From contig SVAX01000002.1 in NCBI GenBank assembly GCA_015059155.1, positions 85,561 through 149,560 on the forward strand: a stretch of DNA of 64,000 nucleotides. Reading direction: 5' to 3'. The DNA is from Bacillota bacterium (GTDB taxonomy: Bacteria > Bacillota_I > Bacilli_A > RF39 > UBA660). Of this stretch, positions 35,403 through 42,401 are shown one piece after another. Each line of letters begins with the position of its first letter. The stretch's first letter is position 1. The translations under genes and the position numbers were made by a program. Under the pieces are notes generated by a model that had not been told where the DNA came from, searched no databases, and saw nothing but the letters and a program-made list of their open reading frames with translations.

Positions 35403-35512
35403 CTCCTTATTTGATTATATCATACTACAATTATTTTTATAACTATTCTTTTAAAAAACTAGAAAACATTAAAAAAATATGATAACATTATATATAGAAA
35501 TTAGGTGGTAGT

Positions 35513-37255
35513 TTGAAAAATAATAATTTTAAACTTATATGGAAATATTTAAAAGATGAAAAATTAAGATTGTTTTTATACATATTTTTAATTTTAGTAT
35601 CGCATATTCCGGGATTGAGTACTCCCTTATTTTGGGGATTAGCTTTAGAATCTTTAATAAGTGGTAGTTTTGTAAATTTTGGATTATATCTTTTTGTATG
35701 GATAAGTTTAGATATAGTTTTCTTTTCCATTTTGAGTATACCTAGAGAAAATATATACAATTATTTAGAAATTAAATTTAATAAAAATGTTATAAAGGAT
35801 TTATATAGAAAAATAACAGACTTACCTGCCATAGCTCACGAAGAAATTGGAGTTGGAGAATTTATAAATAGGATGGCATCTGACCCAGAAAGAGTTATGG
35901 AGTTGCTTTCAAAACTTATAAAAATGATATTTAGAATAATAGTTACAATTATTATAATTTTTATTATTTTTGCTTCATCTATTTATTTAGGTATAGAAAT
36001 TATAATATTTGCTTTTGTAATGTGGTATGTATCTTATAAATTTTTCCCTAAAATTAAAAAAACACAAGAAAGTATTAAGAAAAATTCTGATAAATATATA
36101 AAAGACGCCACAGAAAATATAACCGGTATAAGAGAAATTAAAGGGCTTGGAATTAAAAACAACGTAGAAAACATAATGTTTAAAAATATTGATTCATTAT
36201 TTAAAGAAAATAGAAAAATAAAAAAATACGAAATTAATTATAATAATATAAATAATTTAATATACTTTATATTACAATTTATTATATTATTTACTAGCGG
36301 ATATTTAGTTATAAAAGGACAAATAAGTTATGTTCTATTTATAGCTATTGAAGCTTACATAGGTAGAATAGATCAAGTTGTTGAAAGTATAGGAGATTTT
36401 GGTGTAAGTTATAATAAAGTTAAAATTTCTTTAAAGAGAATAGATGATATTGTTAATAATAAATTATATAATGATGAGAAATTTGGTAATGTTGAAATTA
36501 AAGATACTAAAGGTATTATTGAATTTAAAAATGTTAAATTTAAATATAGAGAAGATGAAAAAAATACTTTAAACAATTTAAGTTTAAAATTAGAGCCAAA
36601 TAAAAAAATAGCTATAGTTGGTAGAAGTGGTAATGGTAAATCTACTATATTTAATTTGTTACTTAGATATTTTGATACTAACGAAGGTGAAATTACTTTA
36701 GATGGTATTAATATACAAGATTTAACCGAAGAATCATTAAGAGAAAATATTTCAGTAATTAGACAAAATCCATTTATATTTAATATGACAATTTTAGATA
36801 ATTTTAAATTAGTCAATCCTAATATATCACTTGAAGAAGTAAAAAAAGTTTGTAAATTAGCTTATATAGATAAATACATAGAATCACTTCCTAAAAAATA
36901 TGATACGTTAATTGGCGAAGGCGGAGTTAATTTGTCTGGGGGCCAAAAACAAAGATTAGCTATTGCAAGAACACTTTTATTAAATACAAAAGTAATTTTA
37001 TTTGATGAAGCTACAAGTGCTCTTGATAACGAATCACAAGAGTATATTAAAAAAACTATTGATAATTTAGTTAAAAATCATACAATAATAATAGTAGCTC
37101 ATAGACTTTCAACAATAATAGACGCTGATGTTATTAATGTTATAGATAAAGGTAAATTAGTTGGTACAGGAACGCATAATGAATTATTAGAAACTTGTAA
37201 TGCATATAAAAAATTATATTTAATAGAAAACGAAAATCAAAAATTAGATGAATAA
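35513..37255 (+). CDS. ABC exporter, fused TMD-NBD (MsbA/multidrug type)
   Basis: GRSGNGKS, LSGGQKQR, DEATSALD, AHRLST. Confidence 0.93.
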   Translation: MKNNNFKLIWKYLKDEKLRLFLYIFLILVSHIPGLSTPLFWGLALESLISGSFVNFGLYLFVWISLDIVFFSILSIPRENIYNYLEIKFNKNVIKDLYRKITDLPAIAHEEIGVGEFINRMASDPERVMELLSKLIKMIFRIIVTIIIIFIIFASSIYLGIEIIIFAFVMWYVSYKFFPKIKKTQESIKKNSDKYIKDATENITGIREIKGLGIKNNVENIMFKNIDSLFKENRKIKKYEINYNNINNLIYFILQFIILFTSGYLVIKGQISYVLFIAIEAYIGRIDQVVESIGDFGVSYNKVKISLKRIDDIVNNKLYNDEKFGNVEIKDTKGIIEFKNVKFKYREDEKNTLNNLSLKLEPNKKIAIVGRSGNGKSTIFNLLLRYFDTNEGEITLDGINIQDLTEESLRENISVIRQNPFIFNMTILDNFKLVNPNISLEEVKKVCKLAYIDKYIESLPKKYDTLIGEGGVNLSGGQKQRLAIARTLLLNTKVILFDEATSALDNESQEYIKKTIDNLVKNHTIIIVAHRLSTIIDADVINVIDKGKLVGTGTHNELLETCNAYKKLYLIENENQKLDE

Positions 37256-37278
37256 AACATATATTTAGAGGTGTTATT

Positions 37279-37485
37279 ATGTTTAAAATTGCAAAATTAA
37301 AAGAAATTAATAACGAAAAACTTAATTTTGATTATATTACACAAGAAGAATACAAATATGAAAACGGATAAGCAATTTTACATTACTCTTTTAAAATATT
37401 ATCATTCAATATTTCTGGAGAAGACTATTCGTTCTCATTTGATTTAGATGATTATTTAAAAATAAAACAAAAATCAAGGTACTAA
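37279..37485 (+). pseudogene. Short remnant ORF with in-frame TAA at 37369
   Basis: GAGGTG RBS; frame continues after the stop. Confidence 0.4.
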
Positions 37486-37499
37486 CCTTGATTTTTGTT

Positions 37500-38059
37500 T
37501 TATTTAATTTTACTATTATATAGTTCGCTAAATCTTTCTTTACTCATAATTAGTACATGTTTAGTTATAGGAACACCATTTTTTTGTCAACTATTTTCTT
37601 CATCTTTATAAAATTCGAACCCTATTTTTTCGTGAACTCTTTTTGATTTTTTATTTCCTTCATCATATCCAGAAACAACATTATCATATCCGTTTTCAAA
37701 CAAGAAATTCATAGCTTCTACGACTGCCTCTTTCATATAACCTTTTCCCCAATGATTTGGGTGTAAATTAAAAGTTAGTTCTAAACTATTTAATTCATTG
37801 TTATATTGATCGCAGTTAAATTAGCTATAGGTTCCATAGTTCCTTTTAAATATATAATCCAATCATAAACATCTTCTGTTTCTTCTGAATAATTAGCAAA
37901 AGTAGCAATAAAATTAGGATCATTTTTTACAAATTCAAATTCACCACATATATCTCTTAATTTTGTGAAATTATACTCATATACTTTTATAAAATCTTCT
38001 GCAGTTCCCTTTTTTAATATTAATCTTTCCGTTTCTAATTGCGGTGTTTTTAAAAACAT
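37500..38059 (-). pseudogene. RimJ/RimL-type GNAT acetyltransferase pseudogene
   Basis: LETERLILK start; frameshift near 37810; other frame gives LHPNHWGKGYMKEA..GNKKSKRVHEKIGF; premature TGA at 37587-37589. Confidence 0.85.
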
Positions 38060-38069
38060 TTCATTACCT

Positions 38070-38831
38070 CTATTTTTTTATTATTTTTTGTTTTACAGTA
38101 TCTAATATCTTTTCAGTTTCATTATACTTAATGTTAACATCCTCATTTAATATTGAATCAACAGGAATCAAAGCCTTATCTAGTTTACCTATTTGAATTA
38201 CATTATCACATTCACTGCCTACGCCTGTTTGTTTAAAAGCTATAATTTCGCCTTCATACATTAAAGTTTTTGATTCTAACTTATCTCCTTTAAGTAATTG
38301 TTTTTGTCCTCCTATCAACATCTTATAACCCGGATCTATATTTCTTGTTATTTCTATGCTATTTGTAATTAAAGTAAATATATTACCATCTAATCCTTTT
38401 AATTTTTTAATTTCTAATTTTCTTTTAGAATTTTCATAAATAAATTTATAGAATGCTTTGTTTTCTATACCTTTATTATAATGTTCGTAGCAAGAAGGTA
38501 GTATTATATAATTATATTTATTGAAAAAGGCATCTGTTTTACCATTTATTGAATAATTATTATAGCTCTCTGTTTCCACTTCTTTTAATAGGCTAAACTT
38601 ATTTAAAGGATTCACTTTTATTGCCTCTAAATTCAAAACATACTCATACTCCCCATTTTTAGCTTCATACATTTCATCAACTATATTTATTGAAATAGTA
38701 TCATCTTTTTTATTTTCACTTTTACATCCTGTCAGTGTAAATAAAGTGGTTATTATAAGTGCACCTGAAATTAGTCTTGTTTTTTCATTTTTTAATTTTT
38801 TCAAAACATTCTTATATATACTTAACTTCAT
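38070..38831 (-). CDS. Putative lipoprotein
   Basis: Hydrophobic stretch ending LTGC; start MKLSI behind GGGGGA. Confidence 0.55.
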   Translation of the reverse strand: MKLSIYKNVLKKLKNEKTRLISGALIITTLFTLTGCKSENKKDDTISINIVDEMYEAKNGEYEYVLNLEAIKVNPLNKFSLLKEVETESYNNYSINGKTDAFFNKYNYIILPSCYEHYNKGIENKAFYKFIYENSKRKLEIKKLKGLDGNIFTLITNSIEITRNIDPGYKMLIGGQKQLLKGDKLESKTLMYEGEIIAFKQTGVGSECDNVIQIGKLDKALIPVDSILNEDVNIKYNETEKILDTVKQKIIKK

Positions 38832-39063
38832 ATATATCCCCCCTAATTGACTGTATTTTAACATATAAATAATAAAATTGCAAAATAATAATTATCTAAA
38901 TAAAGTTAAAACTTTTTGTTTTGTCTTATTATTTGATGGAAATTTATTTTCAACTTCCATACTTAACTCATTTGACAATTGCATTCTTTTACATTCTAAA
39001 AGTATTTGTTTATACCCTTTTAAAATTTCTATTCTTCTCTTTCTCATTTCAAATCCCCCTTAT

Positions 39064-39354
39064 TTACATACTTATATTATTTAAAAATGTAGCCAATAAT
39101 CCTAATAATATAATTAATATTAAAATTGCAATATGATATGATATTGGTCTATCATCGTCACTAAATTTTCTACCTTCTTCACATATCTTATCACAAGAAT
39201 AATAACTTCTTGAATATAATTTATCATAAGCACTACAACAATAATTAGAGCCATCCACATATTCTTTAATTTTTTTACAATAGTATTTAGTACCACACAA
39301 AGCTCCCTCATACTTCTTGTCCTCTTTTAAATATTTACAACTTGAACAAGTCAT
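39064..39354 (-). CDS. Small Cys-rich protein with C-terminal TM
   Basis: CSSC...C...YYC...CC pattern; co-oriented downstream of VirD4-like gene. Confidence 0.55.
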   Translation of the reverse strand: MTCSSCKYLKEDKKYEGALCGTKYYCKKIKEYVDGSNYCCSAYDKLYSRSYYSCDKICEEGRKFSDDDRPISYHIAILILIILLGLLATFLNNISM

Positions 39355-39401
39355 AAATTAACCCCCTTTTTTAATCGAGAAACAATAATTTTATTCTTTT
39401 A

Positions 39402-40688
39402 CTATAAACTTTTTTTCATTTCGTAATGTGGCAATAACTTTGTTTTAATTGGCATTATTCTTGGTATTAAAATTATCGCCTCAAATACTCTTAATATTTT
39501 TAATTCTTCTACAGATATTAATGGTTTAACAACACCATCTTCACACGTTTTTCCACATAGATTACTTATTTCTTCTAATGTTTCTATATCTTGTGATAAT
39601 AAATAAACTATATTAGCAAAACATAATTTTAATATCTCAGTATTTTCCTTTCCATATTTATTTTTTAAATCATTAAATCCTCTTATCATAAGAGTAAATG
39701 TAATATTTATTCCTCTTGAGTAATTTAACATTTTTTCAAAGTTTTTTATTGGATATAATCCAAAGAAATCATCAACTATAATATTAATTTTACCTTCTTT
39801 TTTTGAGTATTCATCTTTAGCATAATATACTTGACTAATTAATAAAGGAAGTAATCTTTCTGAATTATTTGAATTACCAGAAACTACATATATTATAATT
39901 TTTTCTTTAGCTATATTAGTAATATCAAAATCTGATTTAGATAACAATTTATTTAAATTTTCTTTTGATATAAATCTTTTAATTTTTTGGCTAAATACCG
40001 ATAGTATACTTCCTCTAGTTTCAGTTGGTGCATTTAATACACCTGATAAATTAATGTAAGCACTAGATTTCTTATCAAGTTTATCTTTAAATTTATCTCC
40101 ACTTTCTTTAACTTCTATATCTAAATCTCTTATCGTAGTTAAACTTACTTCTTTTTCTGTTTCAAAAGCATATAAAGCAAGTCCCGTAAAATAATTAACT
40201 GCAGAATTAGTCCAAAACGGATCCCCATTAACTTCCTCTAAATCATATATCAAATAAAAAGCTAATTCTTCGAGCATATCTTGAGCCTTATCTTTATTTC
40301 CTTCTTTATATAATCTATAAGGCAAATCAAGTGGATTCCAATTATTTGAGTCCATAGCATCATCAAAATTTAATCTTATTACGTTATACCCATTTTCTTT
40401 AAACATTTCACTTGTTGTTTCATAAAGTTCATTTTTAGTGTCGTGAATAATTACTGATTCTCCTGCTTTATTAGCAAGTTCTAATAATGGAAGTGTTATT
40501 GTTTGTGTTTTACCACTTCCTGTTGTTCCAATAACTAATGAATGATTTAATCTATCAGAAATATATAGATAATTATCATCATAAGCCATCGGTAATCCAG
40601 AAGATTTAACTTCTGTATTCCAATTAACTCCTATTAATGGAATATATTTTTTCATATTTTCTTTGGTTTCCCATTTTGCAAAATTCAT
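39402..40688 (-). CDS. VirD4/TraG-like coupling-protein ATPase lacking TM anchor
   Basis: HSLVIGTTGSGKT, HDTKNELY, NWNPL, FWTNSA; Walker B IVDDF; KYGKEN motif. Confidence 0.8.
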   Translation of the reverse strand: MNFAKWETKENMKKYIPLIGVNWNTEVKSSGLPMAYDDNYLYISDRLNHSLVIGTTGSGKTQTITLPLLELANKAGESVIIHDTKNELYETTSEMFKENGYNVIRLNFDDAMDSNNWNPLDLPYRLYKEGNKDKAQDMLEELAFYLIYDLEEVNGDPFWTNSAVNYFTGLALYAFETEKEVSLTTIRDLDIEVKESGDKFKDKLDKKSSAYINLSGVLNAPTETRGSILSVFSQKIKRFISKENLNKLLSKSDFDITNIAKEKIIIYVVSGNSNNSERLLPLLISQVYYAKDEYSKKEGKINIIVDDFFGLYPIKNFEKMLNYSRGINITFTLMIRGFNDLKNKYGKENTEILKLCFANIVYLLSQDIETLEEISNLCGKTCEDGVVKPLISVEELKILRVFEAIILIPRIMPIKTKLLPHYEMKKSL

Positions 40689-40804
40689 AATCTTTCCTCC
40701 CTTTGACATCTAATATAACACCCTCTTTTTAACATAACTTAAACAATAGTGGTATTTTATTGATTTTTTATAAAAATTAAGGTATTATAATGTTGGTGGG
40801 AGTT

Positions 40805-41275
40805 ATGTATTCTAATAATCTTATTTGTGAAATATTGATATATATAGATGAAAATATTAAAAATAAAATAACTATAGAAGATTTAGAAAACAAATTCTTC
40901 TATAATAGATATTACATAATGAAGTTGTTTAAAAAAGAAATCGGTTTGACCATAGTAGAATATATCAATTCAATAAGAATCTATAATTCAATATTATTAA
41001 TAAAAAATAATAATTCAAATTTTATTAATATTGCTTTTAAAAATGGATTTTATTCTTTAGAATATTTTTCAGAAACATTTAAACAAATAACAAATTTAAA
41101 TCCTAGAAAATTTAAAGATTATTTTTTCCACAAAAAATCTATATCTTTTGATGATATAGATAAGATTAATAATTCAATAGTAAAACTTTATGAAATATCA
41201 AATATAAAAGATAATTATTTATCTAAACAAAAACCTGTTATAGCTCCAGTCAAAAAATTATCAATATTCAAATAA
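40805..41275 (+). CDS. AraC-family regulator (HTH domain only)
   Basis: LFKKEIGLTIVEYINSIRI, IAFKNGFYSLEYFSETFKQITNLNP. Confidence 0.85.
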   Translation: MYSNNLICEILIYIDENIKNKITIEDLENKFFYNRYYIMKLFKKEIGLTIVEYINSIRIYNSILLIKNNNSNFINIAFKNGFYSLEYFSETFKQITNLNPRKFKDYFFHKKSISFDDIDKINNSIVKLYEISNIKDNYLSKQKPVIAPVKKLSIFK

Positions 41276-41326
41276 TTTTAACTAGATTTTTTTGACAATA
41301 ATATTTATTTGTGTTATATTAAATAT

Positions 41327-41440
41327 GTCAAGGAAACTTGCATATAATAAAAAAGGATACATTTGATTGGACGAATCAAATGCATTCCCTTAGTGGATTG
41401 CATCTGAAATCACATAGTTGTGAAATCAGATGCGTTTTTC
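41327..41440 (+). ncRNA. Putative antitoxin sRNA (~110 nt)
   Basis: TTGACA(41292)-17-TATATT(41315) with extended TG; two hairpins; T-tract at 41435-41439; antisense to the 3' UTR of the peptide gene. Confidence 0.65.
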
Positions 41441-41517
41441 TATTTTACTAGTAATAATATTATTATAGCAAGTAGAAGTAATATAATAACATATTGAGAT
41501 ATTTCTCTTTTAGTCAT
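41440..41517 (-). CDS. Putative type I toxin, 25-aa hydrophobic peptide MTKREISQYVIILLLLAIIILLLVK
   Basis: Strong RBS; promoter TTGATA(41617-41622)-17-TATAAT(41594-41599) with TG; anti-SD segment in leader; not in ORF track. Confidence 0.7.
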   Translation of the reverse strand: MTKREISQYVIILLLLAIIILLLVK

Positions 41518-41680
41518 AAATATCACCCCTTTCTTTTATTAATTTAATATTCGAAAGGGAAAGCATCTGATATTTTCAAATGCATCCATATATATTATAC
41601 CAAACATACATTCCTATATCAATAGTATATATTGATTTTTTTATTTATTTAATTTATAATATTAATAGAAAGAGAACAAC

Positions 41681-41743
41681 GTTCGTAAGCTGTAGCTTTA
41701 TCGCACCAGATGCACATATCCGAACTATTATAGTTCGTTTTTT
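41681..41743 (+). other. attR of the tRNA-Leu island with the probable original tRNA terminator
   Basis: GCACCA at 41703, then CGAACTA-TTA-TAGTTCG hairpin and T-run; left arm mirrors right arm of junction 31686. Confidence 0.7.
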
Positions 41744-41850
41744 TGTATATATTTAAAAAGTTATTCCAGTACAGTGGAATAACTTTACAAAAATTAAAAT
41801 ATTAGAACCGTTTGGTTATACTTTATCAATTACAAAAATAAAGGAAAAAT

Positions 41851-42236
41851 ATAAATAATAAATTAGCGTTTTTTAAAGAAAAACAAATAAGAAAAACCTA
41901 GAAAGAAAGTAAATGGTATTTTAGCGTTACTGATGTAATACTTGCATTAACTGATAGCAATAAACCTAGAGATTATTAGTACTGATTAAAAAAGAGCAAA
42001 GGAAAAAGAACAAATTGAGTTGTCGACAATTTGTCGACAACTGAAACTAGAATCAAACAATGAAAAAAATATAACACGTATTGTACAGACACAGAGGAAA
42101 TACTTCGTATTATACAATCAATTCCATCTCCTAAATCAGAACCTTTTAAAAGGTGTCACGCCAAAGTTGGAAGTGAAAGAATCTAGGAAATAAACAATCC
42201 AGAACTTGCAATGAATAGAATGAAACAAAATAATAA
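41851..42236 (+). pseudogene. Bro-N/antirepressor-like pseudogene
   Basis: WYFSVTDVILALTDS, ELSTICRQLKLES, LRIIQSIPSPKSEPFK motifs; several stops/frameshifts; truncated. Confidence 0.8.
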
Positions 42237-42401
42237 CATTAAAAAAGTTAAATAATCTATATTTAATAGTAAATCCATTTAATGAAAACCATTATTTATA
42301 TAAATTTAGTATATTTTCTATTATATTATTTCATATATTTTATTAAAAATATTGATTTTTTCTTAAAAAATGATACAATAAAGGTGTCAAGGAGGGTTTA
42401 T

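Follow-up and report, generated by a model that had tools for sequence, protein, structure and literature searches.

A type I toxin-antitoxin-like locus of two convergent genes, with a predicted end-to-end fold-back in the candidate toxin mRNA, and its relatives in an uncultured gut lineage

In the Bacillus subtilis type I toxin-antitoxin systems TxpA/RatA, BsrG/SR4, BsrE/SR5 and YonT/SR6, a small hydrophobic peptide is encoded by an mRNA whose 3' end is overlapped by a convergent antisense RNA, and the resulting duplex is cut by RNase III. Binding of SR4 at the mRNA 3' end also tightens the masking of the Shine-Dalgarno (SD) sequence at the 5' end, and we know of no report of a 5'-3' fold-back for any of these four systems. 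Such pairing of the extreme 5' end of a toxin mRNA with its 3' end is a feature of hok/sok (plasmid R1) and of AapA1/IsoA1 (Helicobacter pylori), the aapA1 mRNA reportedly having a long-distance 5'-3' interaction, and in both systems the antisense RNA binds to the 5' region of the 3'-processed mRNA. The pairing, known as fbi/tac in hok, leaves the mRNA closed and inert, as summarised in PMC8594479 after Franch et al. (1997). A further type is represented by par (Fst/RNA I-RNA II, Enterococcus faecalis pAD1) and SprA1/SprA1as, whose convergent genes end in back-to-back terminators and in which a 5' stem-loop masks the SD in front of a peptide of ca. 30 aa. For Fst and SprA1, the interaction takes place outside the overlap, at 5' repeats, and a convergent antisense RNA overlapping the 3' end is the rule in Gram-positive families according to T1TAdb (PMC8594479). 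T1TAdb holds 24 families, from genomes that the literature already names, and 13 Rfam families correspond to type I antitoxin RNAs (PMC8594479). Type I systems are thought to be narrow in distribution, part of the reason being that tiny genes and RNAs escape annotation (PMC12390103, PMC8594479).

The locus described here lies in the window, a stretch of 64,000 nucleotides, and belongs to a genome of 1.0 Mb (17 contigs, 25% G+C, ca. 70% complete). Two convergent small genes (Table 1) occupy the space that separates an AraC-like gene (40790-41275) from the next long ORF (42282). Like the B. subtilis systems, they combine a small hydrophobic peptide with a convergent antisense RNA over the mRNA 3' end; as in par and SprA1, the two terminators stand back to back, a 5' stem-loop masks the SD and the peptide is of comparable size; and, like hok and aapA1, the predicted mRNA can pair its extreme 5' end with its 3' end. 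The locus is probably best explained as a type I toxin-antitoxin-like module of an undescribed family.

Table 1. Predicted features of the locus (positions in the window; minus-strand features are given from 5' to 3')
Feature	Position	Strand	Details
Peptide-mRNA promoter	41622..41594	-	-35 TTGATA (41622..41617), 17-nt spacer, TGgTATAAT extended -10 (hexamer 41599..41594); 11/12 matches
mRNA 5' end	41587..41563	-	predicted start G41587; fold-back boxes 1 and 2
Fold-back box 1 GGAUGCAUUUGA	41587..41576	-	pairing with terminator 3' arm
Fold-back box 2 AUCAGAUGC	41571..41563	-	pairing with terminator 5' arm
SD-masking hairpin	41563..41526	-	anti-SD CCCUUUC (41559..41553), 19-nt loop, SD GAAAGGGG (41533..41526)
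Anti-SD-bearing word CUUUCCCUUUC / CTTTCCCTTTC	41563..41553	-	leader
GAAAGGG ribosome-binding site	41533..41527	-	
Candidate toxin ORF MTKREISQYVIILLLLAIIILLLVK	41517..41440	-	25 codons and TAG stop
3'UTR hairpin A GCAUCUGAUUUCAC...GUGAUUUCAGAUGC	41433..41400	-	reverse complement is the terminator stem of the antisense RNA
mRNA terminator	41389..41349	-	stem-loop 41389..41355 and U-tract 41354..41349; both arms are 3' fold-back partners
Antisense-RNA promoter	41292-41320	+	-35 TTGACA, 17-nt spacer, TGtTATATT extended -10; 11/12 matches
Predicted antisense RNA, candidate antitoxin	41327-~41443	+	~113-120 nt
29-nt family signature TCAAGGAAACTTGCATATAATAAAAAAGG / TCAAGGAAACTTGnATAnAATAAAAAAGG	41328-41356	+	5' handle of the antisense RNA
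Antisense RNA 5' hairpin	41329-41340	+	CAAG-GAAA-CUUG
Antisense RNA linker	41341-41354	+	A-rich
Antisense RNA hairpin 1	41355-41388	+	
Antisense RNA terminator hairpin	41400-41433	+	T-run from 41435

The two module promoters, each with an extended TG, are the two best matches within the 1.7 kb scanned. A preliminary description of this DNA had proposed a minus-strand hydrophobic peptide of 25 aa with a promoter of its own, facing a convergent plus-strand transcript that overlaps the 3'UTR, and every sequence element that it named is present at the place it gave, together with the promoters and the antisense terminator listed in Table 1. The leader is 70 nt long and the predicted mRNA totals ca. 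240 nt. The entire layout is seen again in 146 distinct instances, with promoters, ORF and both terminators kept, a recurrence that exceeds what chance would produce. As sequence comparison shows, both genes are conserved together with their promoters and terminators; both RNAs are presumed to be transcribed. A MITE with terminal inverted repeats was considered and rejected, the repeats lying inside both promoters and running from the predicted transcription start to the terminator base. A 37-codon TTG-initiated ORF within the antisense RNA (41338-41451, plus strand) is conserved neither in length nor in sequence in the other subfamilies described below and was therefore regarded as non-coding. 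To the right of the module, a promoter-like TTGATT-17-TATAAT (41632-41660, plus strand, 10/12 matches) is followed ca. 60 nt on by a hairpin and a T7 run (41721-41737); a plus-strand transcript of ca. 75 nt could arise from the 41632-41744 region, which crosses the island homology break at 41711 (see below) and holds another CAGATGC word.

The N-terminal head of the candidate toxin is charged and is followed by ca. 17 hydrophobic residues and a C-terminal Lys. Among the 146 distinct instances, 122 loci have an intact ATG ORF preceded by an SD, and the removal of one spurious ORF left 121 loci, which fall into five peptide subfamilies: A (MTKRE..., 25 aa, which includes the peptide encoded at 41517..41440), B (..KKDFLI.., 27 aa), C (MKTKTF.., 30 aa), D (MRKSEK.., 30 aa) and E (MKKKDLLISF.., 29 aa). 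All five display a charged head and a hydrophobic run of ca. 18-20 residues, and a terminal Lys is usual. In subfamily A, pN/pS is 0.27 in frame versus 0.71 and 1.56 in the other two frames, variation is highest at third codon positions, and 35 of the 37 members are 25 aa long. Over the five subfamilies the in-frame values range from 0.24 to 0.63 and are below both off-frame values in each, that of D being marginal (0.63 versus 0.64). These ratios show purifying selection on the peptide frame, and a small (20-60 aa) hydrophobic ORF conserved as coding, as is generally expected of type I systems, is present here. Six family peptides scanned against Pfam and NCBIfam profiles gave no match at E <= 10, and the APxxxG motif of Fst is absent from the peptide, as had been remarked previously.

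Complementarity between the predicted antisense RNA and the mRNA extends over ca. 95 nt, with the stop codon at one end and the U-tract at the other. The -10 box of the antisense promoter ends 7 nt ahead of the TCAAGG of the signature in 111 of 146 instances (extended TG in 104 of 146), and nearly all loci (119 of 121) have a terminator, i.e. a hairpin followed by a T-run, whose distance from the predicted start is constant (105-124 nt). The fixed spacing to the -10 box and the constant distance to the terminator indicate that the signature forms the 5' end of the antisense RNA, whose median predicted length is 107-115 nt in each of the five subfamilies despite their differing sequences. This 5' handle is composed of a terminal 4-bp hairpin with a GNRA loop (variants GAAA, GCAA, GGAA, GUAA and GAGA), for which compensatory stem variants occur (CAAA/UUUG, GAAG/CUUC), and of an A-rich tract, and one such handle is common to all five peptide subfamilies. 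An antisense gene having its own promoter and terminator and complementary to the toxin mRNA is a second trait of type I systems, and its presence opposite a conserved peptide ORF supports, at the sequence level, the type I design put forward earlier. Searches with Rfam covariance models returned no relevant match at E <= 10 in 40700-42400 and none at E <= 1 in four other copies; with Rfam, Pfam and NCBIfam all silent on these queries, the earlier suggestion of a new family is supported. In three subfamilies, namely C, D and E (examples are L003, L023 and L055), the antisense terminator extends into the end of the ORF, the median overlap being 8 nt for C and E and 22 nt for D, and in subfamily C the codons of the C-terminal Lys-Lys (AAAAAA) double as template for the U-tract of the antisense RNA.

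In every subfamily the mRNA leader closely copies the first hairpin of the antisense RNA and is thereby complementary to both arms of the mRNA's own terminator. The preliminary description had pointed out that the 5' word GGATGCATTTGA could pair with the 3' word TCAAATGTATCC; these words occur at 41587..41576 and 41366..41355, respectively, and the fold-back turned out to be conserved. For cognate pairs, the strongest duplex of leader and 3'UTR has a mean of -35.6 kcal/mol, versus -20.9 for non-cognate pairs (partners taken from other subfamilies), and the cognate duplex is stronger than all 12 sampled non-cognates in 88% of loci. In 77 of 121 loci, pairing begins 6 nt past the -10 box, where the mRNA is predicted to start; it ends at the terminator base. 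These comparisons designate the 5'-3' fold-back as the strongest conserved RNA feature of the family and show it to be specific for the cognate locus. In an alignment of 36 subfamily A sequences, 99.8% of cells show pairing of box 1 (nt 1-12) with the terminator 3' arm and 95.7% show pairing of box 2 (nt 17-25) with the 5' arm, the latter with 11 double-change cells; covariation in each box exceeds all 200 shuffles, yet is thin within the subfamily because the sequences are similar. The 3'UTR hairpin A of the same subfamily (93.7% paired) also lies above all 200 shuffles and shows compensatory C-G to U-A changes, whereas the terminator hairpin itself does not exceed the shuffles (36 sequences, 200 shuffles). 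At position 209/225, a C.A mismatch occurs in 15 of 36 subfamily A terminators, but in fold-back box 2 this C is part of a G-C pair. A gap-free pairing count anchored on the best -10 box gave 64% versus 53%, but the anchor was often misplaced, which renders this count uninformative, and the duplex test and the spacing from the -10 box to the fold-back were relied on instead.

For the copy in the window, the thermodynamic model does not favour the fold-back over local hairpins, the local-hairpin fold (-80.8) and the fold-back fold (-79.3) being 1.5 kcal/mol apart; boxes 1 and 2 are also able to form a local 8-bp 5' hairpin (41583..41563). The SD is masked in both alternative folds. It is paired in the minimum free energy structure, with an unpaired probability of 0.00-0.03 per SD nucleotide, and the SD core has an unpaired probability of 0.08 versus 0.37 when the upstream sequence is shuffled. 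That the leader can mask the GAAAGGG site, as had been claimed, thus applies to this copy, in which the SD pairs with the anti-SD, but the effect is modest family-wide (0.25 unpaired versus 0.33 in a composition-matched control, with no gain in subfamilies A, B and E). In 84 of 121 loci, an anti-SD lying upstream pairs with three or more of the five nucleotides of the SD core. A 3'UTR word, AAGGGAA, was considered as an SD mimic that would pair with the anti-SD and was discarded, 171 of 200 shuffles doing as well and covariation giving no support.

A working scheme can be drawn from these features. On the minus strand, the ca. 240-nt mRNA would encode a 25-residue single-helix membrane peptide, the presumed toxin, and on the plus strand the convergent RNA of ca. 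115 nt, the presumed antitoxin, would be fully complementary to the 3'UTR and terminator of the mRNA. The mRNA may be silenced twice, first by the local hairpin that masks the SD and second by the pairing of its first ca. 25 nt with both terminator arms, which would close the molecule and bury both ends. The very segment with which the leader pairs is the target of the antisense RNA, so that antisense binding and the fold-back would exclude each other. Entry would most likely occur via the still-exposed 3'UTR hairpin and proceed to a duplex of ca. 95 bp, a putative RNase III substrate by analogy with RatA, SR4 and SR5. Binding would evict the leader, so that end-to-end closure is lost, the 5' end becomes exposed and the anti-SD can close fully on the SD. 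Because anti-SD and fold-back have two or more nucleotides in common in 70 of the 84 SD-masked loci, eviction may also tighten SD masking, a proposal that is tentative in view of the modest masking across the family and the unsupported SD mimic. Transcription of both RNAs, toxicity of the peptide, a role of RNase III and the direction in which translation is affected are inferred. It is conceivable, and we suggest it only tentatively, that the antitoxin competes with the 5' leader of the mRNA for the terminator region and that the 5' handle is a common module of at least five toxin subfamilies. Antisense control of end-to-end closure would then set the stability and translation of the toxin mRNA, and the GNRA hairpin and A-rich handle might be read by a host factor or by the U-rich 3' tail that the family mRNAs share.

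The source genome carries at least seven modules, among which are a second full copy with 82% identity and three more that share just the first ca. 70 nt, on the antisense side. An unbiased scan of this genome for SD-preceded hydrophobic ORFs of 20-36 aa yielded 8 candidates, 7 of which face such an RNA gene, and the eighth is unrelated to the family peptides; no orphan toxin of the family is present there. Two of the seven modules carry the variant 5' hairpin GAAG-GAAA-CUUC, a compensatory handle stem, with a shorter A-tract; they belong to subfamily B and lie on the minus strand, at ca. 2300-2690 of contig C10 (MFKKDLLIFSLIILIFLLVLLLFIVLV) and at ca. 36100-36520 of contig C15 (MLVSKKDFFICSLIIIILLLIALLFVILK), and signature-based counts such as those that follow consequently underestimate the family. 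With up to 2 mismatches allowed, 50 of the 151 genomes of the same order that were scanned carry the signature. They represent 36 of 86 genera, and a single genome may have as many as 17 copies; a reversed control pattern gave 0 matches. Among the matches listed, it was also found in more than 120 contigs of metagenome-assembled gut genomes labelled uncultured Bacilli, Tenericutes, Erysipelotrichaceae or Mollicutes and, in one case, Candidatus Ventrenecus. A motif scan of IMG/VR gave 0 matches, and blastn and tblastn did not detect the module in phage and plasmid collections. The locus is thus one member of a very large family rather than a one-off. Three signature contigs (L041, L054 and L064) are labelled Muribaculaceae or Bacteroidaceae; as their sequence is of the Bacilli type with 25% G+C, these labels probably reflect binning errors and not transfer.

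Tandem arrays of two or three modules, spaced by ca. 330-640 nt, are frequent (L074 4831-5809, L071, L088, L084, L017 and L149 9896-10877), and such arrays occur in several known type I families. In 24 of the 146 instances there is no intact SD-preceded ATG ORF and the RNA handle is kept (e.g. L141, L143, L074:5780, L028 and L099). Some 16 of these show visible decay (a frameshift, a premature stop or loss of the start codon). A non-ATG start may be in use in one or two, such as L022, and the others have no recognisable remnant. Because the RNA handle was the means of finding instances, the proportion of decayed toxins is biased and modules with other handles are under-counted. Decayed toxin frames next to intact RNA genes, together with the lack of an orphan toxin in the source genome, give no more than indirect hints that the candidate toxin would be harmful on over-expression and that the RNA would neutralise it.

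The same data bear on another reading, in which the peptide is a non-toxic small membrane protein, for instance a transporter or envelope regulator, tuned by a cis-antisense RNA and not part of an addiction or defence module. Purifying selection would be expected of any functional small protein, and most copies are chromosomal and absent from phage and plasmid collections. This reading nevertheless appears unlikely, as it accounts poorly for the many divergent paralogues that a single reduced genome may hold (the maximum of 17 being signature matches), for their tandem arrangement and for the RNA genes that stay intact beside decayed frames; moreover, SD masking and fold-back are design features known from toxin mRNAs, and no conserved neighbour gene was found that the peptide could serve.

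Within the toxin-antitoxin reading, control might also be of the par/Fst type, the antisense RNA blocking translation via two repeat boxes in the 5' leader of the mRNA besides overlapping the terminator. The repeats reported between the leader region and the plus-strand transcript do exist on the plus strand (GCATCTGA at 41400 and 41563, CAAATGCAT at 41377 and 41577), and in this copy the RNA words GCAUCUGA and CAAAUGCAU are complementary to UCAGAUGC and AUGCAUUUG of the leader. The leader-RNA duplex is somewhat stronger than non-cognate ones in subfamilies A (-30.5 versus -23.7) and B (-28.9 versus -24.8). Family-wide, however, it is barely better (-27.3 versus -23.9 kcal/mol) and beats all 12 non-cognates in just 29% of loci, none of them in C or D, while the fold-back is the stronger interaction in 89% of loci. 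In most A members the 9-nt box contains an A.C mismatch that is not present in the fold-back. The boxes exist as the leader copies the first hairpin of the antisense RNA, and because of this resemblance the par-like pairing is mostly a by-product; a par/Fst mode of action is hence quite unlikely. From the likeness to par/Fst, TxpA/RatA and hok that was initially drawn, the 3'-overlap layout and the hok-like fold-back can be retained, and the par-style leader pairing cannot, being specific in 29% of loci as compared with 88% for the fold-back.

Set against the described systems, the module with its predicted fold-back and 3'-overlapping antisense RNA differs from each in several respects. Unlike TxpA/BsrG-type systems, it has no similarity in toxin or RNA, by sequence or profile (Rfam, Pfam and NCBIfam), and unlike the B. 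subtilis systems its peptides are shorter (24-31 aa over the family), its RNA measures ca. 110 nt and five subfamilies share one 5' handle. In hok and AapA1 the antisense RNA does not act as predicted here, where the very 3' segment used by the fold-back would be covered; a mok-like leader ORF is lacking, and SD masking is due to a local hairpin and not to the fold-back. Furthermore, the hosts are Gram-positive, sequence similarity is lacking and no Hok-family Pfam match was obtained. Unlike par, the leader-repeat pairing is not conserved, and neither an Fst motif nor a Pfam or NCBIfam match to it was found. In the literature, no description of such a system was found in this lineage. As far as can be told, the combination of the Gram-positive 3'-overlap layout with a fold-back of the hok/AapA1 kind is undescribed, and so is a shared RNA handle.

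The family is a large one, listed in no database, with members in more than one-third of the genera that make up an uncultured gut lineage with genomes of ca. 1-1.5 Mb, and it would join two designs known only separately, a 3'-overlapping antisense RNA and a 5'-3' fold-back, with the antisense RNA aimed at the fold-back partner. If confirmed, it would represent a compact natural RNA switch and offer a way into asking why strongly reduced genomes keep many such modules. Should competition between the antitoxin and the leader prove true, these reduced-genome gut bacteria would have a modular, mix-and-match antitoxin architecture.

Finally, the genomic context of the locus was considered. The block to the left of the module, at least 37492-41711, which includes VirD4-like and AraC-like genes, is 87-94% identical in three other species-level genomes, as compared with 70-83% for the backbone beyond 43.8 kb. 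All island alignments end at 41711, 89 bp past the toxin promoter, and two further genomes share 41306-41711 only. This homology break and the sharing of 41306-41711 place the module at the right edge of a horizontally shared island, where it is the last feature before the break, in agreement with its assignment to the right end of the island in the preliminary description. A serine-recombinase homologue was found in 13 of 122 module-bearing stretches, within the DNA examined, and adjoins no other copy in the source genome; most copies of the family are not island-linked. That the module acts as a dedicated stabiliser, by post-segregational killing, of this mobile island ("element C") would fit its position at the break, the higher identity of the left block and its travelling with the right end in the two genomes that share only that segment, but is very improbable given the rarity of the recombinase near other copies, the absence of the family from IMG/VR, plasmid and phage collections and the att boundaries, for which a direct-repeat search of the island gave nothing usable. 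In a related genome (L150, G010:C55, 4261-5564, compared with 35487-37492 of the window), the island flanks are 87-96% identical and the serine-recombinase gene of element C is replaced by an unrelated segment of 1.3 kb, which indicates that the island is a mosaic.
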